NCBI GenBank assembly: GCA_022763805.1
Contig: JALERC010000079.1
Span: 12,620 to 76,619 of the forward strand
Direction: 5' to 3'
DNA length: 64,000 nt
From: Mycoplasmatota bacterium
GTDB taxonomy: Bacteria > Bacillota_I > Bacilli_A > RF39 > UBA660
Shown here: piece by piece, positions 1-46,717 of the stretch
Numbering within the stretch: the first letter of the stretch is position 1
How the letters are laid out: each line of letters starts with the position of its first letter
The notes under the pieces: model-generated
What the model saw: only the letters and a program-made list of their open reading frames with translations
Database searches by the model: none
What the model was told of the DNA's origin: nothing
Translations under genes and position numbers: made by a program

Positions 1-721
1 TAGGAATAGAAATTTCATTATTTTCTAATCTTTTTACTAACCCTTGAATTTCATTACCAAAATTTCTACTGTAAGCAGTTTTAATTTCTTCATCAGTTTT
101 TAATAAATCTTCTAAATATCTTTTTCTATTTTCTGTATCTTGTTTCAACTTTTCATTAACAGTATTTAAACCACTATTTAAATTATTAGAAATAGCAGTT
201 AATTCAGCTTGATATTTATCTAATTCTTCATGATATAATCTATCATTTTCTGCTTGAGCACCAAGAGCATTATTTTTTAAAGCGTTATCTCTACTTAATT
301 CTCTATTAGCTTGAATTCTTTCGTTATATAATTTTTCGTCAGATTCACTAAGTTCACCATCACCAAATCTTCTATTATCACGATTATTTTTTGCAATTAT
401 TTTATTATTTGCGGTAATATGTTCTCTTAATTTTTCTTGAACTTGGTGATTTGCATAAATTCTTTCATTAACGTTATTAATTCTATTTTGAATTTCCTTC
501 ATTTTTTCTACAGCTAAGTCGTGTTCTGAACCTTTTGTATAACCAGATTTTTCTATTTCTTCAATTTCTTTTAGTTCTCTTTTATAATTTTCAATTCTAG
601 CATCAACTTTTTCAATCTCAGCATTTCTTAATGCAACATCATCAATATCTAATTGACCAGCTTTAATTCTTGCTGCTAGACTATTAAGTGCATTTATCAT
701 TTCTTCTTTATTCATAAGCAT
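1..721 (-). CDS. Partial CDS (N-terminal ~240 aa; continues past window start): Asn/Glu/Lys-rich coiled-coil protein, begins MLMNKEEMINALNSLAARIKAGQLD
   Basis: Hand translation of the reverse strand gives an open frame from ATG at 721-719 to position 1. Its ATG overlaps the upstream gene's stop (TAATG at 719-723). Strong heptad-like E/K/N/L composition, no TM segment. Confidence 0.5.
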   Translation of the reverse strand, partial: MLMNKEEMINALNSLAARIKAGQLDIDDVALRNAEIEKVDARIENYKRELKEIEEIEKSGYTKGSEHDLAVEKMKEIQNRINNVNERIYANHQVQEKLREHITANNKIIAKNNRDNRRFGDGELSESDEKLYNERIQANRELSRDNALKNNALGAQAENDRLYHEELDKYQAELTAISNNLNSGLNTVNEKLKQDTENRKRYLEDLLKTDEEIKTAYSRNFGNEIQGLVKRLENNEISIP

Positions 722-2088
722 TATCTCCTATTTCTATATTCCATCTTAATTTCGTATTGTATATTTTGATTATTTTTAATATCTAATATACTATTAACTT
801 CAAAGTTATATTCCTTAAATTTGTTAAATAATTCTTCTTCAGTATAATAATTATCATCAATTACTATCCATCCTGCAGTATTTCCGTTTACTTCATCAGT
901 TGTTTTAAAATATTTATAAACTGTAGCTTCTGAATCATCATCTCTAACATAACCCTCAGCAGGACTTGTTAGATAATAAGTATTTTCTTCCTTACTACTA
1001 GCATTACCACTTGGATAATATTTTCTATAATTACCTTCAATATACCATTTCCATACTCTGTCGGTATATTTATAACCTTTTTTTGACTCACATTGTGTAG
1101 TACCTTCACTAGCACAAGAATTAATTGTCCATTCAGACCATTCTCCTTGAGAACAAACTGTATTTTGTGCTACTTGAGTACTGCCATCACATGTATATAA
1201 TATACCTAAAGTAGTTTTAAATTTATCTGTTTGTCTTTCTTCACATTTTGTAGTTGAAGTGACTGTTCCACTAACTTTTGAATCAGTACATATATATTTA
1301 AATGGCCTTGCAATACTGTTTTCTTTTTTTCTATATAAAATTGTTTCTTTAATTGTTCTATAATCTTTAGTTTCAGGTTTATCAATACTATATTTAACAA
1401 CAGGTTCACCTTCATCACCTTTTTTGTTATATCCATCAGGTTTTTCAGATGTGAATGAACCATTATTCCAATAATTAGTACCATTATCTGATTTATACCA
1501 TTTATATGCTTTTATACCATTAGCCTCTCTATACTTATATTCTTCATTTGGAGCTTTATCGTAATATTCAATTACTTCATCACCATTATTTTTATTTGAA
1601 GGATAATATATTTTAGACTTATTACTAAATATTTGTGGTAAAAAAGTAAATCTTATATCTGATACATCAGGTGTAATATCTTTTTCAGTACCTTCAACAT
1701 ATTCTCCATATTCAATATCATCTTTTCCATTACATGATACAAAAGGAGTATATTGATAATTACCACTTTCTAATTTGCAAACTTTAACATAAGTTTTTTC
1801 TCTATCACAAACACCGTATTTTTCTGCTTTTATATAATGTTTATAAGCTAATTCGTTAATTTCTAATCTAACACATTCTCCATATTCTTTAGGTAATAAC
1901 GAATCATATTTAGCATAATATGATTTTGCACCATTAATTAATTCTTTATCTCTGCTTTTTCTAGAAAGAGCTCTATATCCAAAAATAGCAATTGCTATTA
2001 ATATTATGGATGAAACAATTAATAAAGGCTTTAAAAATGGTTTTACTTGTTTAGCCTGATATGTTCCAGAATTATTATCTTGTTCCAT
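721..2088 (-). CDS. Membrane-anchored extracellular protein: one N-terminal TM helix, then a Cys/Tyr/Lys/Gly-rich ectodomain with a WSEW...C...C thrombospondin-type-1-like motif; function unknown
   Basis: 455-aa ORF. Hydrophobic segment LLIVSSIILIAIAIFGY near the N-terminus. 20+ Cys and many YK/NG motifs. Motif CSQGEWSEWTINSCASEGTTQC. Confidence 0.6.
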   Translation of the reverse strand: MEQDNNSGTYQAKQVKPFLKPLLIVSSIILIAIAIFGYRALSRKSRDKELINGAKSYYAKYDSLLPKEYGECVRLEINELAYKHYIKAEKYGVCDREKTYVKVCKLESGNYQYTPFVSCNGKDDIEYGEYVEGTEKDITPDVSDIRFTFLPQIFSNKSKIYYPSNKNNGDEVIEYYDKAPNEEYKYREANGIKAYKWYKSDNGTNYWNNGSFTSEKPDGYNKKGDEGEPVVKYSIDKPETKDYRTIKETILYRKKENSIARPFKYICTDSKVSGTVTSTTKCEERQTDKFKTTLGILYTCDGSTQVAQNTVCSQGEWSEWTINSCASEGTTQCESKKGYKYTDRVWKWYIEGNYRKYYPSGNASSKEENTYYLTSPAEGYVRDDDSEATVYKYFKTTDEVNGNTAGWIVIDDNYYTEEELFNKFKEYNFEVNSILDIKNNQNIQYEIKMEYRNRR

Positions 2089-2223
2089 AGATACCTCCTA
2101 TTATTTATCATATAAATTATAACATAATAAAGATTCATTTACAATAAAATCAACCTTTAAAATGAAATTACATTACAATAACATATAAGAAAACAATTGT
2201 CAATTAAATTGGCTTAAAAGTTA

Positions 2224-2865
2224 TTAATTAATATCATTTTTAAGGTATTTGGTAATACCATTAATAATTTTGTTATTAATATCAAATTGATACTTATAAG
2301 AATTAATTTTTTCTAAATCACTTGTATTAGAAATGAATCCATATTCTATTAATGCTATCGGGTAATTAATATTATCCATAAAATATATATTATTGATTTT
2401 TTTTACTTTTCTTCTTGGATTAACAAATTTATTAATTGAATGAGCAAGTTTGTCATCTTTAGAATAAAATATTTGAAGCCCATTATAATTTTTGTTTGAA
2501 GAAGCATTCATATGAATGGATATAACACAATCAGGATTAATGTAATTTATAATTTTTATTCTATTATCGAAATCACTTTTTTTTCTTCTAAAACTTTTAG
2601 GATTTGATAAATCATAATCATCATATCTTGTCATATATACTAAAGCACCTCTTTTTTCAATTTGCTTCTTGAGATTTAAAGAAACCAACAAATTTAAGTC
2701 AGATTCATATGTGTTATTATAATAAGCTCCTTTATCTTTTCCACCATGACCAGGATCTATAACAATGACTTTTCCATATAATGGTTTTGTTTGGGAAAAC
2801 ACTACTAAATTATTTAGATTTATAAATATAAATAAAAAAAGAACATATTTTTTATATTTGCGCAT
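2224..2865 (-). CDS. cwlD: N-acetylmuramoyl-L-alanine amidase, Amidase_3 family (CwlD-like germination/cortex amidase)
   Basis: VIVIDPGHGGKDKGA...ALVYMTRYDDYDLS matches the CwlD/Amidase_3 catalytic N-terminus. N-terminal signal/anchor present. In B. subtilis cwlD lies near rplM-rpsI. Confidence 0.6.
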   Translation of the reverse strand: MRKYKKYVLFLFIFINLNNLVVFSQTKPLYGKVIVIDPGHGGKDKGAYYNNTYESDLNLLVSLNLKKQIEKRGALVYMTRYDDYDLSNPKSFRRKKSDFDNRIKIINYINPDCVISIHMNASSNKNYNGLQIFYSKDDKLAHSINKFVNPRRKVKKINNIYFMDNINYPIALIEYGFISNTSDLEKINSYKYQFDINNKIINGITKYLKNDIN

Positions 2866-5943: not shown

Positions 5944-6645
5944 TTAATTATCATTTAAATTTAAATCATGATCTTTTTCTATTTTTTTCCAACCGACAGA
6001 TTCAATACCTGGTTCATTCATAATATTAGTCATTATTCTATCTATAACACTAACAAATTTCATATCTGAAGACAATGTCGCATATATTTTTACCATACCA
6101 TTTTCAATTGTTTTTGTTTCGATGTTTTCTAACGTTAAATTAACATTTTTAGTTGCTTTTGAAATTATATTACGTACTCTTAATTCTTTGTCATCTTCAC
6201 ATTTAATCTTAAATAAGTATTCTTGATTAATCTTTCTTGATTTTGATAACTTGTTTGTAATCGTTCTTAGGAAAATATTAGAAAATAAAATGGCAATACA
6301 TCCAGTTGTAGCTTCGATAAGTAAACCACCAGCACATAAAACACCAATAGCAGCATTACACCATAAAGTAGCAGCAGTATTTAATCCTCTAATATTTCCA
6401 CCATCTTTAATAATAACACCAGCACCTAAAAAACCTATTCCAGATACAACTTGAGCAGCAATTCGTGTCACATCACCATCTGTTTGAATCAATGTAGAAA
6501 ATGATGCAAACAAAAATGCACCCAATGAAACTAATACGTTCGTTTGTAATCCTATAGCATGTCTTCCCCATTGTCTTTCAAATCCTATTAATAAACTTAA
6601 ACCAAAACAAGCGCAAATTCTATTAACAAAATCTATATATTCCAT
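5944..6645 (-). CDS. mgtC: MgtC/SapB family membrane protein
   Basis: N-terminal MgtC domain (GLSLLIGFERQWGRHAIGLQTNVLVSLGA) followed by a soluble ACT-like C-terminal part. Confidence 0.7.
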   Translation of the reverse strand: MEYIDFVNRICACFGLSLLIGFERQWGRHAIGLQTNVLVSLGAFLFASFSTLIQTDGDVTRIAAQVVSGIGFLGAGVIIKDGGNIRGLNTAATLWCNAAIGVLCAGGLLIEATTGCIAILFSNIFLRTITNKLSKSRKINQEYLFKIKCEDDKELRVRNIISKATKNVNLTLENIETKTIENGMVKIYATLSSDMKFVSVIDRIMTNIMNEPGIESVGWKKIEKDHDLNLNDN

Positions 6646-6725
6646 TTTATCACTCCTATGCTATAAATATACAAAAAGAAGTATAATCCAGCGATTATAC
6701 TCCAAGAAATATCTCGTAAGAAATC

Positions 6726-7136
6726 TTAACGTTTTGAGAATTGTGGTGCACGACGTGCTGCTTTTAATCCTGGTTTTTTACGTTCTTTAACTCTTGCATC
6801 TCTAGTTACAAATCCAGCTCTTTTTAAAACTTTTCTGTAGCTATCTTCGTTACTTTCGTTTGCTTTATCATATTCACATAAAGCTCTAGCAATACCTAAA
6901 CGAATAGCACCAGTTTGTCCAGTGAATCCTCCACCATTAACTTTTACTTCAATATCAAATGTTTCTTCATTATTTGTAGCAACTAAAGGTTGTTTTAAAT
7001 CCATAACATTAGTTTCATATGGAAAGAAATCTCTTACATCTCTACCGTTAACAGTAATTTTTCCAGTACCTGGAACCATTTTTACTTGAGCGATAGAAGA
7101 TTTTCTTCTTCCTGTACCAATAAATACTTTACTCAT
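6726..7136 (-). CDS. rpsI: 30S ribosomal protein S9
   Basis: Ends RRAPQFSKR; conserved S9 sequence. Confidence 0.95.
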
Positions 7137-7149
7137 AGATTAAACCTCC

Positions 7150-7587
7150 TTATTTACCCATTTTTAACTCAACAGGTTGTTGAGCTGCATGTGGATGTTC
7201 TTCCCCAGCATAAACAAATAATTTTTTATACATTTGACGTCCTAATCTTCCATGTGGAAGCATTCCTTTAACGGCTCTTTCAACCATTTCAACAGGATAT
7301 TGATCTCTCATAACACGAGCAGTTCTTTCTCTTAATCCACCAGTATATCCACTGTGGTTGTAGTAAATTTTCTTATCTAGTTTGTCACCAGTAAGTACTA
7401 CTTTAGAAGCATTAGTAATAATAACATAATCACCACAATCAATATGTGGAGTGTATGTTGGTTTATGTTTACCACGTAAAACATGAGCAACTTTAGTAGC
7501 TAAACGTCCTAAAGTTAATCCTTCAGCGTCAACTACATACCAATTACGAACTACTTCATCTTTTTTTTGCATGTAAGTATTTTTCAT
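7150..7587 (-). CDS. rplM: 50S ribosomal protein L13
   Basis: Conserved L13 sequence (NWYVVDAEG...). Sits upstream of rpsI as in all bacteria. Confidence 0.95.
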
Positions 7588-7674
7588 ATTGTTTCCCTTC
7601 CTTGTAATAAATTAATAATAGTTAGATTTCCCACATCTAACTTTTATTGGGATTTATAAAATGTACCAACTAAA

Positions 7675-7703
7675 ATATTACTAAAAAATTATTGAAAAGT
7701 CAA
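7675..7703 (-). promoter_or_regulatory. rplM-rpsI promoter (-35 TTGACT, 17 nt, -10 TAATAT) followed by a leader hairpin GTTAGATttcccacATCTAAC (7621-7641)
   Basis: Reverse-strand reading. A hairpin in the 5' UTR of L13 is consistent with an L13-type autoregulatory leader. Confidence 0.45.
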
Positions 7704-7720
7704 GTAAAAATAGTGTTTTT

Positions 7721-8455
7721 TTAAAAATAAAACACATCTTCTAGATATAACCCACATGCTTCCGCTTTAATACCTGCTTCTTTTCTATCTTCACATTTAA
7801 ATAGTCTATCTATATCATCAATATTTCTTTTATTTTCACCTATTTCAATTAAACATCCCACAATGTTTCTAACCATATATCTCATAAAACCAGAACCAAT
7901 AAATGATATTGATAAAATATTATCTTTTAATACAATACTTGTCTCAAAGATTTCTCGTTCATAATCACTAATTTCGGAATTTGGTTTAGTGAATGATTTA
8001 AAATTATGTTTACCTTCAAACTTTTTGATTGCTATATTCATTTTTTTAATATCTATATTTTTGTTATATTGATATATATAATCAGATTCGATCGGATTAT
8101 ATTCGCCTAAATTTATTTTATACGTATATTTTTTCCTTATAACATTAAATCTAGCATGAAAATCATCAGTTACTGTTTTAATATCTTTAATATATATATA
8201 TTTAGATGTTAATTTATTGAGAGAATTTCTTAAAATATCAACATTTATATCTCTATCTAAATCAAAATGTGCCTTTTGGTTTAAAGCATGAACACCATTA
8301 TCTGTTCTTCCGCTAGCACTAATACTAACAAAATTATTACTATTAATTTTTGTTAATGCTAATTCAATATTTTCTTGAACACTTGGTTTATCAGGTTGTT
8401 TTTGATAACCATAAAATTTTGAACCATCATATGAAAACGTCATTAAATATCGCAT
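7721..8455 (-). CDS. truA: tRNA pseudouridine(38-40) synthase TruA
   Basis: TruA motifs (GRTDNGVHA). Conserved ecfT-truA-rplM synteny. Confidence 0.85.
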   Translation of the reverse strand: MRYLMTFSYDGSKFYGYQKQPDKPSVQENIELALTKINSNNFVSISASGRTDNGVHALNQKAHFDLDRDINVDILRNSLNKLTSKYIYIKDIKTVTDDFHARFNVIRKKYTYKINLGEYNPIESDYIYQYNKNIDIKKMNIAIKKFEGKHNFKSFTKPNSEISDYEREIFETSIVLKDNILSISFIGSGFMRYMVRNIVGCLIEIGENKRNIDDIDRLFKCEDRKEAGIKAEACGLYLEDVFYF

Positions 8456-9219
8456 TAAATCACCTTCTTAACAATTAATAATCCAAATATAATAAAATGT
8501 AATAAAAATAAAAATGTATCGAATATACGCCATTTATTTAATCTATAGTTAGTTCTTTTAGCATTTATATTGTATAGTCTAACTTGCATAGCCTCAGCTA
8601 GTGTATCAGCTCTTCTAATTGTTAAAATAAACATAGGAAGAAGCATTGATTTTATTGCTAAAAATTTACCTGGTAATTTCGAATTATAATAATCAACCCC
8701 ACGACTAGCTTGAGATTTTAATATTTTATTTCCTTGATCAATTATTGTAGGAATAAATCTTAAAGCAAGCGAAATAGATAACGCCATTTTATTAACAGGC
8801 AATCCTATCAATCTAAAAGGGCTTAAAACTCTTTGTAACCCATAAGTGATTTCATTAGGAGGTGTAGAAAGAGTTAATACTGTTGAATATAAAACTACAC
8901 CAGATAATCTCATAAAAACTATAAGAATATCAATTAAGGTTAATCCCGAAAGTGAATATATAATGATAATGAATAGAAATAATATTTTCAAACTACTAAA
9001 TGTTTTTTTATAAATCCTTCTTGGGATATGTGCCATTTCACATAATAAAATTGATAGAGAAAATATTAAACACATCACAACAAAATCATCACAAATAAAA
9101 ATCATTAATGCAAATAATAATGTACATAAGATTTTAGAAATAGGATTCATATAATGCACTTTAGATTTAATAGGGTAATAACTACCAAATACAACATTAT
9201 CTAGCATTTCTATACACAT
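8455..9219 (-). CDS. ecfT: ECF transporter transmembrane (T) component
   Basis: Multi-TM protein directly after two ECF-type ABC ATPases. Conserved Firmicute ecfA-ecfA'-ecfT arrangement. Confidence 0.8.
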   Translation of the reverse strand: MCIEMLDNVVFGSYYPIKSKVHYMNPISKILCTLLFALMIFICDDFVVMCLIFSLSILLCEMAHIPRRIYKKTFSSLKILFLFIIIIYSLSGLTLIDILIVFMRLSGVVLYSTVLTLSTPPNEITYGLQRVLSPFRLIGLPVNKMALSISLALRFIPTIIDQGNKILKSQASRGVDYYNSKLPGKFLAIKSMLLPMFILTIRRADTLAEAMQVRLYNINAKRTNYRLNKWRIFDTFLFLLHFIIFGLLIVKKVI

Positions 9220-10051
9220 CCTTTATAATATCATTAATATCATCTCTATATCCTATTTTTTTTCCTGTTTTTTTGTATACAAGGTTTGCAAATTCGATTT
9301 CATTTGGAACTCTAATACCATATTTTTTTAATTTTTCTTCGTCTTTAAATACTGTGTATTTATCCCCTTCAACCACAATTTCACCATTATCTAAAACATA
9401 GATATAATCACTTATTTTATGTATCAAATCATTATCATGACTTACAATTATTATAGTTTTTTTATATCTCGTTTTTAAATTTCTTAAAAGCATTATTAAA
9501 TTTTTTTTACTTATAGAATCTAATCCGATAGTCGGTTCATCCAAAATAATTACTTCAGGATTAAAAGCTAAAATAGATGCAATAGCTACTTTTCTCTTTT
9601 CCCCATTTGATAACGTAAAAGGATTTCTATTAATATAATTTTGATTTAAACCAACCATTTTTAAGGAATCTTTGACTCTTTTTTCAATATCTTTTGTTTT
9701 ATAATTAAAATATTTCATACCAAAAGATATTTCATCATATACTGTCATATTAAAAAATTGTTCCTCTGGAAACTGAAAAATTAATCCAATGTTTACGCGT
9801 AAATCATTAATATTTTTTATTCTTTTACTTTTATTAGTTATAATGAAATCATTAATTTTTACTTCACCTTTAGAAGGAATATTTAATGCATTAATCATTT
9901 CGACTAATGTTGATTTACCACTACCACTTCTACCGATAATACTTGATATTTTTCCTTCCTTAATATCTAAATTAATATTTTTTAAAACTTCATTTTCAAT
10001 TGGTGTATTTTTATTATACGAAAAATATACATTATTAAATTTTATTTCCAT
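9197..10051 (-). CDS. ecfA2: ECF transporter ATPase component A2
   Basis: Walker A GRSGSGKST, signature LSNGEKRKV, Walker B ILDEPT. Confidence 0.85.
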   Translation of the reverse strand: MEIKFNNVYFSYNKNTPIENEVLKNINLDIKEGKISSIIGRSGSGKSTLVEMINALNIPSKGEVKINDFIITNKSKRIKNINDLRVNIGLIFQFPEEQFFNMTVYDEISFGMKYFNYKTKDIEKRVKDSLKMVGLNQNYINRNPFTLSNGEKRKVAIASILAFNPEVIILDEPTIGLDSISKKNLIMLLRNLKTRYKKTIIIVSHDNDLIHKISDYIYVLDNGEIVVEGDKYTVFKDEEKLKKYGIRVPNEIEFANLVYKKTGKKIGYRDDINDIIKDVYRNAR

Positions 10052-10851
10052 ATCTCATTCACCAACTCTTCCATATCAAATATTAGGTGATCTATTAAGC
10101 CATAATATTGCAATTTAGTAGTTAGTTCAACAATAAAAGGAAGTTTTAATCCTAACTTGTTAAATGTTTTTTCTTCTAAAAAAACAAATTCTTTAGGTCC
10201 GTTTAAAACAATATTTCCTTTGTCCATTACAATTAAATTATCGCCATATAATATTTCATCCATATTATGTGTTACATTGATTATTGTTATTTTATTTACT
10301 TTATTTATTTGTTCTAATATTTTATAAATTTTAATTCTTGTATCCGGATCAATCATTGTAAGTGCTTCATCTAGAATCAAAATATCAGGATCAGTAATCA
10401 AAGCAGATGCTAAAGCAACTAATTGTTTTTGACCTCCACTTAGATTATGTGGTTCTTTATCAAGAATATCTTCAATACCAATAAATTTACTTATTTTCTT
10501 AACTCTTTTATCTATCTCTTTTTTATCAACTTGCATATTTTCAAGTGAAAATACTATATCGTCCAAAACTGTTTCAGCAACAAACTGGTCATCTGGATTT
10601 TCAAATACTACACCTATTTTACTAATGATTTTTTTAAGATTATCATGATTCAACTCTAATCCATTTATATTTATTTTTCCTTCACAAACAAGTAAACCAA
10701 CTAAAAGTCTAATTAGTGTTGACTTACCACTACCGTTATTACCAATAATTGTTGTAAAAGAACCTTTTTCAAAAGTTAAATTTAAATTTTTAAATATTTG
10801 ATTTTTATTATAAGAAAAATTTATATTTTCCATTTCAATAATATTTTTCAT
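10042..10851 (-). CDS. ecfA1: ECF transporter ATPase component A1 (start moved to the internal Met MKNIIEMENINF, which has an AGGTGA SD)
   Basis: Walker A GNNGSGKST, signature LSGGQKQLV, Walker B ILDEAL. The ORF-track start at 10869 has no SD. Confidence 0.85.
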   Translation of the reverse strand: MKNIIEMENINFSYNKNQIFKNLNLTFEKGSFTTIIGNNGSGKSTLIRLLVGLLVCEGKININGLELNHDNLKKIISKIGVVFENPDDQFVAETVLDDIVFSLENMQVDKKEIDKRVKKISKFIGIEDILDKEPHNLSGGQKQLVALASALITDPDILILDEALTMIDPDTRIKIYKILEQINKVNKITIINVTHNMDEILYGDNLIVMDKGNIVLNGPKEFVFLEEKTFNKLGLKLPFIVELTTKLQYYGLIDHLIFDMEELVNEIWK

Positions 10852-10916
10852 GATATCACCTTCGCACATAAATATTATATTATAAATATTTTAATTTTAC
10901 AAATAAAAAAAGAGAA

Positions 10917-11531
10917 CTAAATTTCTCTTTTAGAATAATAGTTTTCTTTATTTATTTGATGTTTTCTAGCTATAGCTAAACAATTTTTTGGAACATCTTT
11001 TGTAATTACAGAACCAGCTGCAATTAAGGAATTTTCTTCAATAGTAACAGGAGCTACCAAAACACTATTACATCCTATAAATACATTATCTAATATAATA
11101 GTTTTATACTTTTTAACACCATCATAATTTGCTATTTTAACTCCAGCTCCAAAATTAACATTTTTTCCGATTTTAGCATCACCTATATATGCTAAATGTG
11201 CAATTTTTGTTTCATCATCAATTGTAGAATTTTTAATTTCTACAGAAAATCCAATATTACAATTATTTGATATTATTGTATTATTTCTTATATATGCATT
11301 AGGACCTATATTATTATTGTTACCTATATTTGAATCAAGTATATTTGAATTCCTAATAATATTATTTTCTCCAATAATACTATTTTCAATCGTTGTATTT
11401 GGATATATTAAAGTATTTGATTTTATAATACTATTTCCTAATATAACAACATTAGGATATATAGTAACATTATCTTCTATAACAACTCTATCATCAATAT
11501 AACATGTATTTTTATTTATATATTTAATCAT
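10917..11531 (-). CDS. Left-handed beta-helix (hexapeptide) acetyltransferase resembling the C-terminal acetyltransferase domain of GlmU, without the uridyltransferase domain
   Basis: Hexapeptide repeats throughout. AHLAYIGDAKIGKNVNFGAGVKIANYDGVKKYKTIILDNVFIGCNSVLVAPV closely matches the GlmU C-domain consensus. Confidence 0.6.
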   Translation of the reverse strand: MIKYINKNTCYIDDRVVIEDNVTIYPNVVILGNSIIKSNTLIYPNTTIENSIIGENNIIRNSNILDSNIGNNNNIGPNAYIRNNTIISNNCNIGFSVEIKNSTIDDETKIAHLAYIGDAKIGKNVNFGAGVKIANYDGVKKYKTIILDNVFIGCNSVLVAPVTIEENSLIAAGSVITKDVPKNCLAIARKHQINKENYYSKREI

Positions 11532-12283
11532 TATTTTACCTTCTTCTTTTGTATTTTATAAGTAATTTTAAGCATTAATTTTATAGGAACAAACTTTCCA
11601 AAAAACTTAGCTAATTTTATACTAGTCCCAGGAATAATTACTAATTTATTTTTAAACATTTTATCTAATGTATAAGAAACAACTTCATTTGCTTCTAAAG
11701 CTTTTATACCAAAAGTAACACCTGCAACATCATTAAATTCTGTATTAACAGGACCAGGACATAAAGTTGAAACATGGACATTACTTTTTTCTTTTTTAAG
11801 TTCTTCATATATAGCACATGTTAAATTGTATACATATGATTTTGATGCATAATATGTAGACATTAGAGGTCCTGGTTGAAACGCAGCAGAAGAAGCTACA
11901 TTTAATATATATCCTTTATTTTCTTTTTTAAATTTTTGTAAAAACAATTTTGTTAATGTATGCACAGCAACAATATTTATATCTATTAATTCAAGTTCTC
12001 TATCTAACGGAGTTTGATCAAAGTTCCCAAAAACTCCAAAACCTGCATTATTTATAAGTATATCAATATTTTCTTTTTTATATTTTTTGAATAATTTTAC
12101 ACAGTTAGTTGGAAAAGATAAATCCAAAGTAACAATCTCAATATTTGTATCTAATTCATCTTTTAATTCTCTTAATCTTTCTTTTCTACGTGCTACTAAA
12201 ACTAGATCATATCCTTTTTTACTAAGTTGTTTTGCAAATTCTTTCCCAAGTCCTGAACTTGCACCTGTTATTATAGCTTTCAT
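11531..12283 (-). CDS. Short-chain dehydrogenase/reductase (classical SDR)
   Basis: TGASSGLG Rossmann motif, NNAG, YxxxK (YYASK). Confidence 0.8.
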   Translation of the reverse strand: MKAIITGASSGLGKEFAKQLSKKGYDLVLVARRKERLRELKDELDTNIEIVTLDLSFPTNCVKLFKKYKKENIDILINNAGFGVFGNFDQTPLDRELELIDINIVAVHTLTKLFLQKFKKENKGYILNVASSAAFQPGPLMSTYYASKSYVYNLTCAIYEELKKEKSNVHVSTLCPGPVNTEFNDVAGVTFGIKALEANEVVSYTLDKMFKNKLVIIPGTSIKLAKFFGKFVPIKLMLKITYKIQKKKVK

Positions 12284-12357
12284 ATAATCACCTACTATTA
12301 AAATTATATACTAAAATATGTATTTATACAATAAAAAATCTAGTTATAAACTAGATT

Positions 12358-13506
12358 TTAAACTATAGGTTTAACGATATAAGGATCATTTAAAGTTCCT
12401 GTTCCACCAATATAATTTACATTTCCATTAATAGTTAATACCAAATGTAAATAAGCGTAAGTTGCAGCTTTCGATTGAACTGCAGATTTATTTACTTTAT
12501 AAACATATTCTGTACCTTCCATTGCAGCTGTAAGAGTCCAATAACTCTTTGAATAATTAGCTAGATAATTATAATTTTTACAAGATTTAGTTAAAGAGCT
12601 AAAACAATTAGGATCTAATGATGCTTGAAAATATTCATATAGTGCTATAGTACCAATTCCCATTAATTCAGATTTTTTAGAACATTCAATATTACCAGTA
12701 TTATCTATATCTTGTTTAGTTCTTTTTCCAATACAAAATTCTTGTGGAATGATTAGTGATTTAACATCTTTAGAAAATTTTTCTTCATCATTATAAACAC
12801 TTAATATTTTATCTTTAATTCTACTAGCTTGAGTACCTTCAAATTCATTGATACCAGCGTCATATTTTTTTTCTACATTATATCTATTATCCCATGGGAA
12901 TGATTTTTCAACATCATCAGAGAATAATCTAATATTACCATTTTCGTCAATCTTCATAATTCTATACAAAGTATTATTAATTTTTAAATAATTATCAACA
13001 TTTTCTCCACGGAAAATATAATAAGGTTCTCCCGATTCTATTTTATATAATCCATTATCTGTTGTAACAATATTTTCTTCTTTAGTTATTTCATCAGTTA
13101 AATTTTTATACTTGTATGCTTCTCCACAATCTAATTTAGGTGAATAACTATAATCATCTAAATTCTTAAATACTAAAACAGACCCCGAACACATTACATC
13201 TTTTTTAGTATATTTACTCATATCTTTCATATAACCTTCAGCAATAAGATCACTAACTTTAATTTCTACAGTTCCATAAATACTTCCTTCAACCTTTTCA
13301 GGATGATTATTAACATATTGTTTGGCTGATCTAACCATAATGTTTTCAATTTTATCATATGATAAGGCTGAACCAAAAATAGCTTTATAAATTACAAAAA
13401 ATAAAATAAATGCTACAAAAATACCTATAAGAATAAACGCCATTTTAATCATGCCTTTTGTTTTATCATCCATATTACTGAAATCAAACATTCTTTTAAA
13501 GTCCAT
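12358..13506 (-). CDS. Hypothetical membrane-anchored surface protein (N-terminal TM, Cys-containing ectodomain ending GGTGTLNDPYIV)
   Basis: 382-aa ORF. TM helix FILIGIFVAFILFFVIY. No recognisable catalytic motif. Inserted between rplQ and the ECF genes. Confidence 0.5.
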   Translation of the reverse strand: MDFKRMFDFSNMDDKTKGMIKMAFILIGIFVAFILFFVIYKAIFGSALSYDKIENIMVRSAKQYVNNHPEKVEGSIYGTVEIKVSDLIAEGYMKDMSKYTKKDVMCSGSVLVFKNLDDYSYSPKLDCGEAYKYKNLTDEITKEENIVTTDNGLYKIESGEPYYIFRGENVDNYLKINNTLYRIMKIDENGNIRLFSDDVEKSFPWDNRYNVEKKYDAGINEFEGTQASRIKDKILSVYNDEEKFSKDVKSLIIPQEFCIGKRTKQDIDNTGNIECSKKSELMGIGTIALYEYFQASLDPNCFSSLTKSCKNYNYLANYSKSYWTLTAAMEGTEYVYKVNKSAVQSKAATYAYLHLVLTINGNVNYIGGTGTLNDPYIVKPIV

Positions 13507-28396: not shown

Positions 28397-28423
28397 AAAT
28401 TAGGATTATTTCCTAATTTTTTT
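28397..28423. terminator. Bidirectional intrinsic terminator: 9-bp stem AAATTAGGA/TCCTAATTT, loop TTATT, A-run 5' and T-run 3'
   Basis: Perfect inverted repeat between convergent gpsA (+) and the 88-aa gene (-). Confidence 0.8.
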
Positions 28424-28688
28424 ATTGCTCATAATCATTTTTAAACATAGGTAAAAAAATGTTTGCTAAATATTGTTTTGTCTCTGCATCTTCTATTGTT
28501 TCTATTCCAAACTTTCTAGTTGGTAATACAATAACTTTTGCATACTTAACATTTTCTGATAAATCACCATTTGATAAATTTTCTACTAACATTAGATAGT
28601 AAATGTTTTTTTCTTCATAAGTTTCACAAACTGTATATGACTTTCCATCTGTCAAATTTAAGATATCTAATTTTTCTATGAAATTCAT
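28422..28688 (-). CDS. Small acidic protein, DUF1292 (UPF0473/YrzB)-like
   Basis: 88 aa. LNLTDGKSYTV...YYLMLV...IETIEDAETKQYLANIF resembles the DUF1292 pattern. Start overlaps the upstream stop (ATGA). Confidence 0.4.
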   Translation of the reverse strand: MNFIEKLDILNLTDGKSYTVCETYEEKNIYYLMLVENLSNGDLSENVKYAKVIVLPTRKFGIETIEDAETKQYLANIFLPMFKNDYEQ

Positions 28689-30619
28689 AGTGATCTACCT
28701 CCCATTTCTTGTTGAAGTTCTTGAACTTTAGTGACATCGTTAATATTCCAGAAACCTTCAGCTTGATTATTTTCACCAGTTAGACAAGCACTAATTTCTC
28801 CTCCTTGATCAACAAGTTTTTGAATACTGTTATCATCTTGGACAAATTTAAATGATCCATCTGGCATTTTAATAGTAACACCAATAATATCTCTTTCTAA
28901 ACTTCTTTCATGAATAGGTGTATATGGATTTGTTCTATTTACAGCATCATACTGATTATTATATATATCAGCACCTTCATTTACAGTAATTTTATCACCC
29001 ATAGATATTTGAGAATAGATTTCATTTTTTAACATACCATCATCTAATTCATTTCCGTGTGTCATATCTTCTATAGTTGTTTCTATTTCTTGATTAGTAG
29101 GTTCAGGTATACTATTTGACAAGTTATTAATTAATGGTGAGGCAGCTAGTGTAACAGTAATAGCGGCAATAACTGCTGCAGCAACTTTTTTAATTTTATT
29201 TTTTACATCTTCTTTTTTAAGTTTAGAACGTACCATTGAAACTATTCCTAATTGTTGTGGAGCGTTATTAACCTCATTTATTTCTTCATTATTCGAAATT
29301 TCATTATTATTGTTTACATTTTGTTCGTTTGATAATTCATGATAGAATGAAGCTTCTTCAATTTTAACATCAGGAACTTGTTCTAAAATATTTTTAACAT
29401 TGCTATTTACATATTCTTTTCTGCATTGTAAAGAACTTCTTATAGATTTATATTGAGCTAACCTGTTAGAATCTAATCTCATTTGAGATTTATCTATCTC
29501 TTCACTATAAGCTCTTTTTTTCATTCTTTCCACCATATCATGATGTTTTGAATAATCACCTACTAGTTCTTTTCCATCAGAAATAATTCTATTTAATTCT
29601 AATAATCTATTTTCTAATTCTACTCTTTCCTCTGATGTAATATTAACATCGCATAATTGATCAAGAACAACATTTCTATCTTCTATATATAGATTAGTAA
29701 TCTCATTATAATCATTTCTAAAATCTTCTAATTCTTTATATCTTTCTAATTTTTCAATTCTTTCTATTCTATTTCTTAAATTTTCTTTTGTTGTTTCTTT
29801 ATATTGGTAATTATTAGGGTCTTTTAATTTTTCTTCTAAATCATTTATTAAATTATCATATTTCTCAATTTCTTCATTTCTTTTTATTTCATCTAAATCA
29901 TTATAATTAGAAAATAATCTTTTTTTATAAATATTTAAATCTATTAATGCATCATCAATTGATAAAGATCCATTTTGTAATTCACTAATCATTCCATTTA
30001 GTTGTGATTCAAAATTTAATTTTAATAATTGTCTAGATTCTCTTCTTGTACCTATTTTAATTAATAATTCCTCATAATCTTTGTCGTATTTATTAACTTC
30101 ATTTTCAAAAAATTTAATTTTCTTTTCTTCACTACTAGCGTTATCTAAGAAACCTTGATGTATATCTATTTCTTCTGATAAATTGTTTAGTTGATCATTA
30201 TTGGTTTTAATTTTATTATTATTGTTTTCTATAATTCTTGAATTAATATCAAATTCATCAAGGATACGTTCATAATCATAACTATTTTTATCTAAATTAT
30301 TCATTTTTTGTTCATATTCTTTATTTAATTCTATTAATTTATTATTATCTTCAGTTAATTGATTAATTATTTCAGATATACTATTAGCTTCAGCAGATAA
30401 AATACTTATTTTTTCTCTTTTTGGTTGTAAAAATTCATCAAATCTTTTATTTAATTCTTCTTCATCAGGTTTTTTTAAATTTCTTGCTTTATTTTCAAGT
30501 TCCCTTATTTCATCACTTAAATTTTCTATTGCTTCATATCTAGCATTTTCATCCATAATCTGAAAATTAACATTATTTTTTAACTCTTGTAATAATTGTA
30601 ATAATTGTTCTTTATTCAT
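28685..30619 (-). CDS. Large coiled-coil protein with a single TM helix near residue ~490 and a ~140-aa extracellular C-terminal domain; function unknown
   Basis: 644 aa. The N-terminal ~480 aa are Asn/Glu/Lys/Leu-rich with heptad periodicity. TM KIKKVAAAVIAAITVTLAASPLI. Strong RBS (AGGAGG) and a consensus promoter upstream. Confidence 0.6.
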   Translation of the reverse strand: MNKEQLLQLLQELKNNVNFQIMDENARYEAIENLSDEIRELENKARNLKKPDEEELNKRFDEFLQPKREKISILSAEANSISEIINQLTEDNNKLIELNKEYEQKMNNLDKNSYDYERILDEFDINSRIIENNNNKIKTNNDQLNNLSEEIDIHQGFLDNASSEEKKIKFFENEVNKYDKDYEELLIKIGTRRESRQLLKLNFESQLNGMISELQNGSLSIDDALIDLNIYKKRLFSNYNDLDEIKRNEEIEKYDNLINDLEEKLKDPNNYQYKETTKENLRNRIERIEKLERYKELEDFRNDYNEITNLYIEDRNVVLDQLCDVNITSEERVELENRLLELNRIISDGKELVGDYSKHHDMVERMKKRAYSEEIDKSQMRLDSNRLAQYKSIRSSLQCRKEYVNSNVKNILEQVPDVKIEEASFYHELSNEQNVNNNNEISNNEEINEVNNAPQQLGIVSMVRSKLKKEDVKNKIKKVAAAVIAAITVTLAASPLINNLSNSIPEPTNQEIETTIEDMTHGNELDDGMLKNEIYSQISMGDKITVNEGADIYNNQYDAVNRTNPYTPIHERSLERDIIGVTIKMPDGSFKFVQDDNSIQKLVDQGGEISACLTGENNQAEGFWNINDVTKVQELQQEMGGRSL

Positions 30620-42673: not shown

Positions 42674-43369
42674 TTACCATCCCCATCTTTTAACATTAAA
42701 ATTTGTATCATTATTAGTATTTATATTAATTTCTTTTTCACTTTTAAATGCTAAATCAATATGTATTATACCATTATTGTATGCTTTTTTCATAGAATAT
42801 CCAGTATCTAATACAATTCCATAAATTGGTTCATTAAGATAACTATTACTAATTTCTAATACTGTACCACATGGAAATTCTCGTTGATCTGCAGCAACTA
42901 CTCTAACATCTCCATATTCGGAGTCATTATAATATATACCATCATTAATTATACTAAACCATGTTCCATCTTTTTTTGGACAACTTACATATCCTCTTCC
43001 ATCACAAGATGCACAATCAGGACCATAAGATGTTAAAATACCATTATAAGAACCATTTTTTCCAAGTCCTATTTCTACAACTTTATCTATTTTTTCTTGT
43101 AAAGTAATATAATTATTATTAGAATCTAAAACTTGAATTCCATTTTGTCCCTCTGTAATAATTTTTTCTTCACCATATGGTAACTTGAAATTATATTTTT
43201 TTATAACATCATATTTAATTATCTTATTACTAATATTAGTACTTTTAATATTGTCCTGATTATATATTTGAATATTTTCTTGATTAAGATTAAATGAAGT
43301 TATTGAAGTCAAACAAATTACTATAACACTTAAAAAATTTTTAATTAAGTTATATATTATAGTATTCAT
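42674..43369 (-). CDS. Secreted G5-domain plus 3D-domain protein (YabE-like cell-wall protein)
   Basis: Signal/anchor N-terminus, G5-like segment, C-terminal 3D-type domain with conserved Asp residues. Same position (next to ksgA and tatD) as B. subtilis yabE. Confidence 0.6.
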   Translation of the reverse strand: MNTIIYNLIKNFLSVIVICLTSITSFNLNQENIQIYNQDNIKSTNISNKIIKYDVIKKYNFKLPYGEEKIITEGQNGIQVLDSNNNYITLQEKIDKVVEIGLGKNGSYNGILTSYGPDCASCDGRGYVSCPKKDGTWFSIINDGIYYNDSEYGDVRVVAADQREFPCGTVLEISNSYLNEPIYGIVLDTGYSMKKAYNNGIIHIDLAFKSEKEININTNNDTNFNVKRWGW

Positions 43370-46273: not shown

Positions 46274-46717
46274 TTATTCTTCAATATATTTTTCTATTAA
46301 ATTTATATATGCATTTACTTGTTTTTTTAATTCTTCTTCGTAATCTATTATTATCAATCCACCATATAAATAACCATTAACGTATACTGGAAATATTTGA
46401 TTATTATCGTAATATATATTATTAATTTTAGTTTTAAATTTTACAATAATATTTTTATCAAATTCAATATTTTCTTTTGATTTATATATATTTCCTGATA
46501 TATCAAAGAATATAATATTTTTTTTAAAATATATGCTCATATTATTAATAATAAGATTTAAAAATTTTTTAGTTTTATCTTCTATTTCTTTTTTTGATAT
46601 AACAATACTATCGTTTTCATATTCTATATTTAATAATTCACCATCATTTATATTTAACTTTTTTCTATAATCTTTAGGTATTACAATTCTTCCTAATGAA
46701 TCGATTCTTTTATTCAT
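46274..46717 (-). CDS. AbrB/SpoVT-family transition-state-type regulator (swapped-hairpin N-domain plus a ~95-aa C-terminal extension)
   Basis: N-terminus MNKRIDSLGRIVIPKDYRKKLNINDGELLNIEY matches the AbrB/MazE/SpoVT DNA-binding domain. The location upstream of metG mirrors B. subtilis abrB-metS. Confidence 0.65.
   Translation of the reverse strand: MNKRIDSLGRIVIPKDYRKKLNINDGELLNIEYENDSIVISKKEIEDKTKKFLNLIINNMSIYFKKNIIFFDISGNIYKSKENIEFDKNIIVKFKTKINNIYYDNNQIFPVYVNGYLYGGLIIIDYEEELKKQVNAYINLIEKYIEE

Follow-up and report, generated by a model that had tools for sequence, protein, structure and literature searches.

Type IV pilins are defined by a cleavable, methylated N-terminus and by polymerisation. 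The bitopic scaffolds MapZ and RodZ of Bacillota have a cytoplasmic N-terminal domain and an extracellular C-terminus and, to our knowledge, the small proteins of the DUF1292 family have no known function. In modular pilins a small pilin module carries a grafted functional module; the class is defined by its class III signal peptide, and pilins of this kind whose grafted module is large occur widely (Raynaud et al. 2021, PMC8179133). Here we describe a cassette at the left end of a 64,000-nucleotide (nt) stretch of DNA from a Mycoplasmatota bacterium (contig JALERC010000079.1, positions 12,620 to 76,619 of the forward strand; henceforth referred to as the window, G+C content 26.8%), whose first gene encodes a 455-amino-acid (aa) protein that, like the modular pilins PilB and PilC of Streptococcus sanguinis (PMC8179133), has a long N-terminal alpha1 helix and a small disulfide-bearing beta sheet followed by a large C-terminal module. 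We refer to this 455-aa open reading frame (ORF) as A, to the coiled-coil gene downstream of it as B and to the small gene after B as C. What is new here, as judged from sequence comparison, is a pilin-derived module in a conserved new genetic setting, carrying a body of unmatched fold. The observations as a whole appear best explained by a pilin-derived, membrane-anchored A that, together with B and C, would form a constitutive envelope or surface structure, a reading to which we give a probability of about 0.5.

The A-B-C operon and its products

At the left end of the window a permease gene, an Amidase_3 gene, a 135-nt spacer, A and then the start of B follow one another on the minus strand; apart from this cassette, the window consists of origin-proximal housekeeping DNA. 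The features of A and B, in window coordinates and with the basis of each call in brackets, are as follows.

721-2088, minus strand: gene A, an ATG-started ORF for a 455-aa protein, predicted to be bitopic with a short cytoplasmic N-terminus, a transmembrane (TM) helix and a large extracytoplasmic body (ORF, 101 clusters, AlphaFold2 (AF2) model)
1684-2034, minus strand: pilin-like module of A, residues ~19-135, in which a long helix, serving with its first half as TM anchor, precedes a small alpha/beta head (Cys72-Cys104, Cys94-Cys119)
1486-1623, minus strand: Tyr-rich 'YYP' repeat 1, residues ~156-201 (reciprocal profile matches between the copies)
1090-1290, minus strand: six-Cys segment (C267, C282, C300, C312, C325, C333), including the WSEW motif (Cys conservation, motif columns)
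898-1029, minus strand: Tyr-rich 'YYP' repeat 2, residues ~354-397, which holds the invariant YYPS (alignment, profile matches)
724-873, minus strand: C-terminal beta-alpha-alpha-beta subdomain of A, residues 406-455 (AF2; conserved D436, I437, Y445)
2116-2144, minus strand: predicted sigma-A-type promoter with extended -10, TTGTAA, 17 nt ending TG, TATAAT (scan; kept across loci)
2175-2203, minus strand: second promoter candidate upstream of A (scan)
2094-2099, minus strand: ribosome-binding site AGGAGG of A (sequence reading)
2-715, minus strand: 5' part of gene B, 238 codons before the window end, with its ribosome-binding site AGGAG at 725-729 inside the end of A (N-terminus identical on contigs L001-L006)

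An initial annotation of the window had described A as a membrane-anchored surface protein with more than 20 Cys in its ectodomain. The N-terminal anchor is borne out by a single hydrophobic segment at residues ~21-38, and the Cys count was too high: A contains 10 Cys (2.2%; positions 72, 94, 104, 119, 267, 282, 300, 312, 325 and 333), next to 45 Tyr (9.9%) and 7 Trp, and members of its family contain 10-13. A homology search down to 25% identity yielded 101 clusters of A homologues, and 98 members were aligned; a scan of species-representative genomes gave 28 A loci, among whose record labels are 'Acholeplasma sp. CAG:878', 'Clostridium sp. CAG:1000' and 'uncultured Tenericutes'. All 101 clusters are 'hypothetical' or unnamed and come from gut metagenomes and metagenome-assembled genomes (MAGs) labelled Bacilli or Bacillota, and the exact window protein occurs on many pig-gut contigs, the index of the assembly collection listing it in 356 blocks. 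The window protein matched no model of Pfam or NCBIfam, no Pfam family matched consistently when each of the 98 aligned members was scanned, and in the literature on DUF1292 and on bacterial TSP1 with pilin we found no description of the family. The ten Cys, the YYPS motif and many Tyr are invariant or nearly so in the alignments, by which A belongs to a real, conserved and previously unannotated family of uncultured gut Bacilli.

A ends at a TAA (723-721) that overlaps an ATG (721-719) in the string TAATG, and this overlap had been read as the junction with B. The string is present and the coupling is tight. Only 3 nt separate the AGGAG at 729-725 from that ATG, against 9 nt to an in-frame ATG at 715-713 (MNKEE...), which gene callers on six other contigs chose as the start of B; depending on the start, the two genes are 5 nt apart or overlap by 1 nt, and with both starts the coupling is close. 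The coiled-coil ORF reported downstream of A is present and is cut by the window end after 238 codons. The sequence to its left, obtained from contigs L001-L006, which extend past the window end, completes B as a protein of 1019-1057 aa followed by an 82-aa gene C. In every sufficiently long locus (28 genome loci, ORF survey) the order was A-B-C with gaps of -1 to ~18 nt; it holds at 25-29% identity with wholly different flanking genes, and a more divergent A member is likewise followed by a coiled-coil gene. The proposed pairing of an envelope or surface protein with a translationally coupled coiled-coil partner thus gained support from their co-occurrence in all loci long enough and extends to a conserved operon of three genes.

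Upstream of A, at a distance of 48-69 nt, a housekeeping-type promoter was found in 24 of 27 loci (TTGTAA or TTGAAA, a 17-nt spacer ending TG, and TATAAT or a one-off variant), and the sequence around it is not conserved. Since the raw count of such promoters in the AT-rich DNA of the window is not above chance, the call relies on their conservation across loci. Overall, these comparisons show that A heads a conserved operon, A-B-C, behind a predicted sigma-A-type extended -10 promoter.

Across 21 loci the products of B are built alike. They begin with a coiled coil of ~340-670 residues that no signal peptide precedes, continue through a basic stretch and a single TM helix (near residue 625 in the window lineage), and end in an acidic tail, 190-380 residues long, which closes with a short conserved motif. 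Where strains have the same A protein, their B proteins do not differ over the first ~700 residues and vary in the length of the tail (B of 1019-1057 aa); in one such tail (L001, 13397-13944) degenerate 51-54-nt tandem repeats encode ITIEDAVIEDNNN-like units. By analogy only, B recalls MapZ and RodZ, being likewise predicted to be an N-in/C-out single-pass protein with a large cytoplasmic part; it has no sequence similarity to them, and it consists of a long coiled coil on the cytoplasmic side and of an acidic low-complexity repeat on the outer side. C, of ~80 aa, is the best conserved of the three genes (mean column identity 49%). It has the same size as the DUF1292/UPF0473 (YrzB-like) proteins and matches PF06949 weakly in 11 of 14 members (best E 6.5e-4), with all matches below the gathering score of 24 bits; the C of the window lineage, whose gene lies beyond the left end of the window, scores 18.6 bits (E 0.0036). 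C also differs from DUF1292 in being always linked to B. A search with the C profile gave 282 relatives; those among the 120 listed are 80-96 aa long and 'hypothetical' or unnamed, and the few named ones among them come from Bacilli or Firmicutes MAGs. Scans of A, B and C against Pfam, NCBIfam, PHROGs and PADLOC returned nothing above threshold.

A Cys directly outside the TM helix, in the motif [KR]-[GSA]-C, was seen in both A and B at 12 of the 21 loci, in A only at 3, in B only at 2 and in neither at 4, among them the window pair; it may be a site of intermolecular disulfide formation or of lipidation. We set aside a lipoprotein reading of this motif in A, as it is not a feature of the family, the window protein does not have that Cys and position -2 is atypical.

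The pilin module of A and its processing site

An exhaustive hidden Markov model (HMM) search with the family profile over 1.84 billion representative proteins gave 1373 matches. Many proteins of 400-1010 aa match the A2 profile at positions ~20-130 only (E ~1e-12 to 1e-13), that is, over the N-terminal head. PF07963 (N_methyl) was found in 8 of 10 such head-only relatives examined, TIGR02532 scored above its cut-off in both of those scanned against NCBIfam (P0202 and P0230), and the N-termini of these prepilin relatives read K-G-F-T-[LM]-V-E-L-L. When A is aligned with the prepilins, its TM segment falls on the pilin alpha1-N helix, and the two share the head motif LLxAGKxYY..LP..G...VTL....C....YVKV.K....Y.Y.....C, including a Cys pair that corresponds to C94-C119, the only pair that the pilin relatives retain. 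In the predicted structure an alpha1 helix of ~50 residues, hydrophobic in its N-terminal half, is packed on a small beta sheet, and the best structural matches to the model of A are the type II secretion minor pseudopilins GspI/EpsI/XcpV, with 64-65 residues aligned. Within the A family, C72 and C104 are replaced jointly in 5 sequences and C94 and C119 jointly in 1, a correlated loss that supports two predicted disulfides in the head, C72-C104 and C94-C119. Taken together, the profile matches and the alignment show that the first ~135 residues of A are homologous to the pilin module of the large ('modular') Bacillota type IV prepilins.

In marked contrast to the modular pilins, the A family appears to have no site for pilin processing. 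The prepilin Gly(-1)/Glu5 motif (G-1/FTLxE) occurs in none of the 101 members compared with 32 of 143 distant matches, no N_methyl match was obtained for the window protein or any of the 98 aligned members, and the column aligned with Glu5 holds Lys or Arg in 94 of those 98. The residues before this column form a long hydrophilic, mostly acidic N-terminus (median ~20 residues). These alignments show a family that, as a whole, has lost the class III signal peptide. Since A has the fold and the head homology of a pilin but not the signal that defines one, we call it pilin-derived and not a pilin. It differs from the modular pilins further in that its C-terminal body contains no known domain and that its constant partners are B and C, not pilus genes.

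We considered whether A could still function as a subunit of a type IV filament, such as a modular minor pilin at its tip, with processing at a non-canonical site and assembly by pilus or Com machinery encoded elsewhere. A head and alpha1 helix homologous to those of genuine prepilins would suit such a role, as would the wide distribution of modular pilins with big grafted modules (PMC8179133), and the relative P0230, a true prepilin, is likewise distant from pilus genes. The substitution of Glu5, the acidic N-terminal extension and the absence of the processing motif throughout the family all argue otherwise, however; pilB, pilC and pilD are absent from the 64-kb window, and the proteins that constantly accompany A are a coiled-coil and a DUF1292-like protein and not pilus assembly proteins. 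On balance we regard a filament role as distinctly unlikely and favour A as a membrane-anchored derivative of a pilin.

P0230 (L035, 10001-13033) is itself of interest as a 1010-aa prepilin that combines a genuine Pfam TSP_1 domain with five OmpL47-type domains, and hence a bacterial modular pilin bearing a thrombospondin repeat; its neighbourhood contains housekeeping genes and no pilus genes.

The body of A, the WSEW segment and a model of a proposed complex

The AF2 model of A, built on the 98-sequence alignment, has a mean predicted local distance difference test score (pLDDT) of 93.2 and a predicted template modelling score (pTM) of 0.71. It consists of a helix (residues 19-60), a small alpha/beta unit to residue ~135, a long-stranded body and the C-terminal beta-alpha-alpha-beta subdomain, so that the body is confidently modelled as elongated, beta-rich and Tyr-rich. 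Foldseek searches with this model against the PDB and against viral models (BFVD) gave nothing (best E 0.03-0.04, TM-score <0.1), and the family profile found no chain among PDB sequences. Within the body a Tyr-rich unit of ~45 residues is duplicated (residues ~156-201 and 354-397; reciprocal profile scores of 37.2 and 27.5 bits) with the consensus kYYPsN-x7-YY-x2-P-x3-Y-x9-YKWYk. At the six Cys of the segment that includes WSEW, C267 to C333, A1 shows no variation and A2 a conservation of at least 90%. A LysM-like reading of the C-terminal subdomain found no support in Pfam and was rejected.

The initial annotation had likened the WSEW string of A, which is indeed present (CSQGEWSEWTINSCASEGTTQC, residues 312-333), to the core of a thrombospondin type 1 repeat (TSR). 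A local W-S-x-W-[ST]-x3-C-x3-G-x2-Q-C does recall the start of a TSR, and the prepilin relative P0230 carries a genuine one; beyond this short WSxW...C...C string, however, the resemblance failed in every comparison. TSP_1 (PF00090) gave no match at E<=1 in the window protein and none in the 98 members; as the same Pfam library found TSP_1 in P0230 (29.1 bits, cut-off 21.6), it is able to detect a genuine TSR. The family profile has no PDB match, and alignment of the segment profile with the TSP_1 domain of P0230 by hhalign gave a probability of 0.14%. The first Trp of the motif is variable (W317 column over the 98 members: Trp 23, Tyr 23, Arg 14, Phe 8, gap 24), the second, W320, is Trp in 66 of 98, and one subfamily of A has no WSEW segment at all. 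In place of a WxxWxxW/RxRxR ladder there are two Trp only, with no conserved Arg or Lys ladder in the strand at 331-343, and the six-Cys unit with CSxTCG is absent, C312, C325 and C333 being the sole Cys from residue 312 to the C-terminus. Modelled in isolation, residues 296-362 reached a pLDDT of 55, and less than 50 in the region of the motif, which is not the TSR-like disulfide-rich fold that the initial annotation had itself made decisive. The thrombospondin reading is already largely refuted, and an adhesion domain of this type in A is highly improbable.

Some longer relatives (P0205 and the subfamily P0060-P0097) contain extra units, TWSDWSNWSEEKP and KWTDWTDWSKTDPK among them, in which W-[SG]-x-W-S-x-[WY]...P precedes strands rich in R and K. 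Motifs of this kind, Trp-ladder-like and without Cys, recur in the superfamily.

If the preferred reading of A-B-C as a constitutive envelope or surface structure is correct, A would stay in the membrane by its alpha1-N helix, and it would presumably not be polymerised into a filament because prepilin peptidase could neither cleave nor methylate it. The pilin head would then serve as a membrane-proximal pedestal from which the disulfide-stabilised beta body projects through or along the wall of vegetative cells. B could pair with A in the membrane and add its surface-exposed acidic tail, while its cytoplasmic coiled coil, bound by C, would give the complex a scaffold or positional cue. Binding of the wall or of a ligand is the most likely role of such a structure, as far as the sequences indicate. 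Several points weigh against this interpretation. The A-B and B-C interactions are deduced from gene order and coupling only, and all members of the A family derive from metagenomes. The loss of the processing site is read from sequence, so that A could be processed in a non-canonical way. Because basic residues flank the TM segment on both sides, the topology of A is taken from its Cys pattern and its homology. The co-occurrence of the juxtamembrane Cys in A and B is weak (5 discordant loci) and confounded by phylogeny and, with no match to its fold in the PDB or BFVD, the body has no function that could be transferred to it.

A more ambitious version, which we regard as rather unlikely, is that A-B-C forms an undescribed trans-membrane apparatus of uncultured gut Bacilli, in which a non-polymerising pilin is the pedestal of a new Tyr-rich, disulfide-stapled beta fold, and in which the bitopic partner links it to an adaptor resembling DUF1292 and to a scaffold made of a long cytoplasmic coiled coil. 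Such an apparatus, if real, would provide the first functional context for the DUF1292 fold; the operon already gives DUF1292-like proteins their first conserved partner. A pilin module kept by a whole family in a fixed three-gene operon, with Glu5 changed to Lys or Arg, would clearly exemplify how a filament subunit can be turned into a membrane anchor. The A family is common in animal-gut metagenomes, in lineages without cultured representatives, and has no Pfam model or solved structural relative, so that defining it would fill a gap in annotation. Should the beta body bind wall or host glycans, A would rank among candidate colonisation factors.

A probable second B/C pair and the neighbours of the cassette

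Further features of the window that bear on the cassette are the following.

28685-30619, minus strand: B', a 644-aa distant paralogue of B with a coiled coil, a TM helix near residue 480 and a 147-aa C-terminal ectodomain (B profile, shuffle control)
28422-28688, minus strand: C', an 88-aa ORF overlapping the B' stop, candidate paralogue of C (rank 1 with the C profile, mirrored B-C order)
12358-13506, minus strand: second anchored pilin-head protein, 382 aa, with a different C-terminal body (A2 profile, 39.1 bits)
2224-2865, minus strand: CwlD-like Amidase_3 gene upstream of A, predicted to be a separate transcription unit (Amidase_3 match, promoter of A)

The N-terminus of B had been reported to resemble that of the 644-aa coiled-coil protein near 30 kb. 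Pairwise BLASTP between the two is not significant (E 0.02-0.045), and the resemblance is real at the level of profiles. As a query the 644-aa protein found itself alone, its candidate list being saturated by coiled-coil words, and we therefore replaced this search by a profile of 19 syntenic B proteins with shuffle controls. Among 254 window ORFs the 644-aa protein was the sole non-self match to this profile (26.2 bits), in three collinear stretches that start from residue 1 of both proteins and include non-coiled-coil motifs and the TM region. Composition-preserving shuffles (n=600) scored -51 ± 6 to 7 with a maximum of -19, and the reversed sequence scored -34, so that the similarity goes beyond composition. 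The order of coiled coil, basic stretch, TM helix and ectodomain is that of B; the 147-aa ectodomain has no Pfam match, and the final residues of the protein, ...QEMGGRSL, recall the ...ELGGK[ST]R with which several B proteins end. The stop of B' overlaps the 88-aa ORF, which ranked at the top of the 254 window ORFs with the C profile, weakly so (E 0.062), and hhalign between the C family and this single sequence was not significant (probability 1.8%); C' is accordingly proposed as a candidate from its first rank in the HMM search and from gene order alone. By profile similarity and gene order, B'/C' is a putative distant duplicate of B/C. The idea of two paralogous surface-protein/coiled-coil modules holds in part: the coiled-coil partners are distant paralogues, but the second locus, directly after rpsF-ssb-rpsR, has rpsR upstream and no A-like (Cys/Tyr-rich) gene beside it.

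The 382-aa protein has an A-like TM segment and pilin head (E 5.6e-12, A2 profile positions 10-143); its C-terminal body has no Pfam match, and no B/C partner adjoins its gene. In the more ambitious reading of the cassette, the presence of this pilin head and of B'/C' in the same genome as A-B-C could mean that surface modules are placed at defined sites of the cell by a general design.

The gene upstream of A is CwlD-like, as had been noted (Amidase_3, E 3e-42), and scores 156.3 bits against the CwlD equivalog model TIGR02883, below the cut-off of 221.55. From this neighbour the initial annotation had drawn a possible association with the spore cortex, and some loci add to it. At L016 (5835-7902, plus strand) and similar loci, a 462-aa protein with Ig-like and polysaccharide-deacetylase domains and then the CwlD-like amidase lie directly upstream of A, and the gene of P0205 adjoins a polysaccharide deacetylase; in Bacillus subtilis a polysaccharide deacetylase and the CwlD amidase together make the muramic delta-lactam of the spore cortex. 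At L028, L032 and L033 (~6300-13100) a sigma factor gene of the sigma-E/K type (226-228 aa; in L032 with sigma-K as its best PDB match, E 2e-33) lies directly upstream of A-B-C, and a putative SpoIIGA-like gene with multiple TM segments lies further upstream. After the cassette, L032 and L033 have a 257-aa gene; in L032, the one locus in which this sigma-F/G-type gene was checked, its best match is sigma-F (1l0o_C, E 1e-60), and L028 ends before this position. The contexts are suggestive of a sporulation or spore-envelope module acting at the forespore or cortex with the CwlD-like amidase. Against it, A has its own conserved housekeeping promoter, with no sporulation-sigma motif apparent, and the amidase, upstream of A in the window and close relatives, is not kept in distant relatives, where the flanks vary by lineage (RNase R/SmpB and EngB/Der, the cassette lying between smpB and engB, in L029, L030 and L034). 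No similarity to any named sporulation family in NCBIfam was found either. The link to the spore cortex is accordingly unsupported, and we keep a spore role as a minor rival, unlikely in our estimation, to the constitutive envelope structure.

At 46274-46717 (minus strand), near mfd and pth, the window encodes a 147-aa protein with an AbrB/MazE-type N-terminal domain. In Bacillus subtilis this place is taken by spoVT, a hint that the organism may sporulate. At 42674-43369 (minus strand), between a tatD-like gene and ksgA, a YabE-like position is occupied by a 231-aa protein in which a G5 domain scores 24.2 bits.

Downstream of the cassette, many of the closer relatives carry an abortive-infection-type AbiD/Abi_2 gene (L001, 14782-15723, plus strand; PADLOC AbiD, E 8e-59) together with an HtrA-like protease. 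This neighbour, and the variation of the B surface tail between strains, could suggest that the cassette is a mobile, phage-derived or defence element. We consider this extremely improbable, as A, B and C match nothing in PHROGs or PADLOC, the G+C content of the cassette equals that of its flanks, no integrase or repeats were seen, and its position beside ribosomal and housekeeping genes is a conserved one of the core genome. A few genes downstream of the cassette, at L001 (17438-17962, plus strand) and also at L008 and L010-L013, lies a gene for a 174-aa protein with a signal peptide, a GCPYC thioredoxin-like motif and a C-terminal TM helix (Thioredoxin_2, 26.0 bits against a cut-off of 27), a possible extracytoplasmic thiol-disulfide oxidoreductase in the vicinity of a surface protein with 10 Cys.

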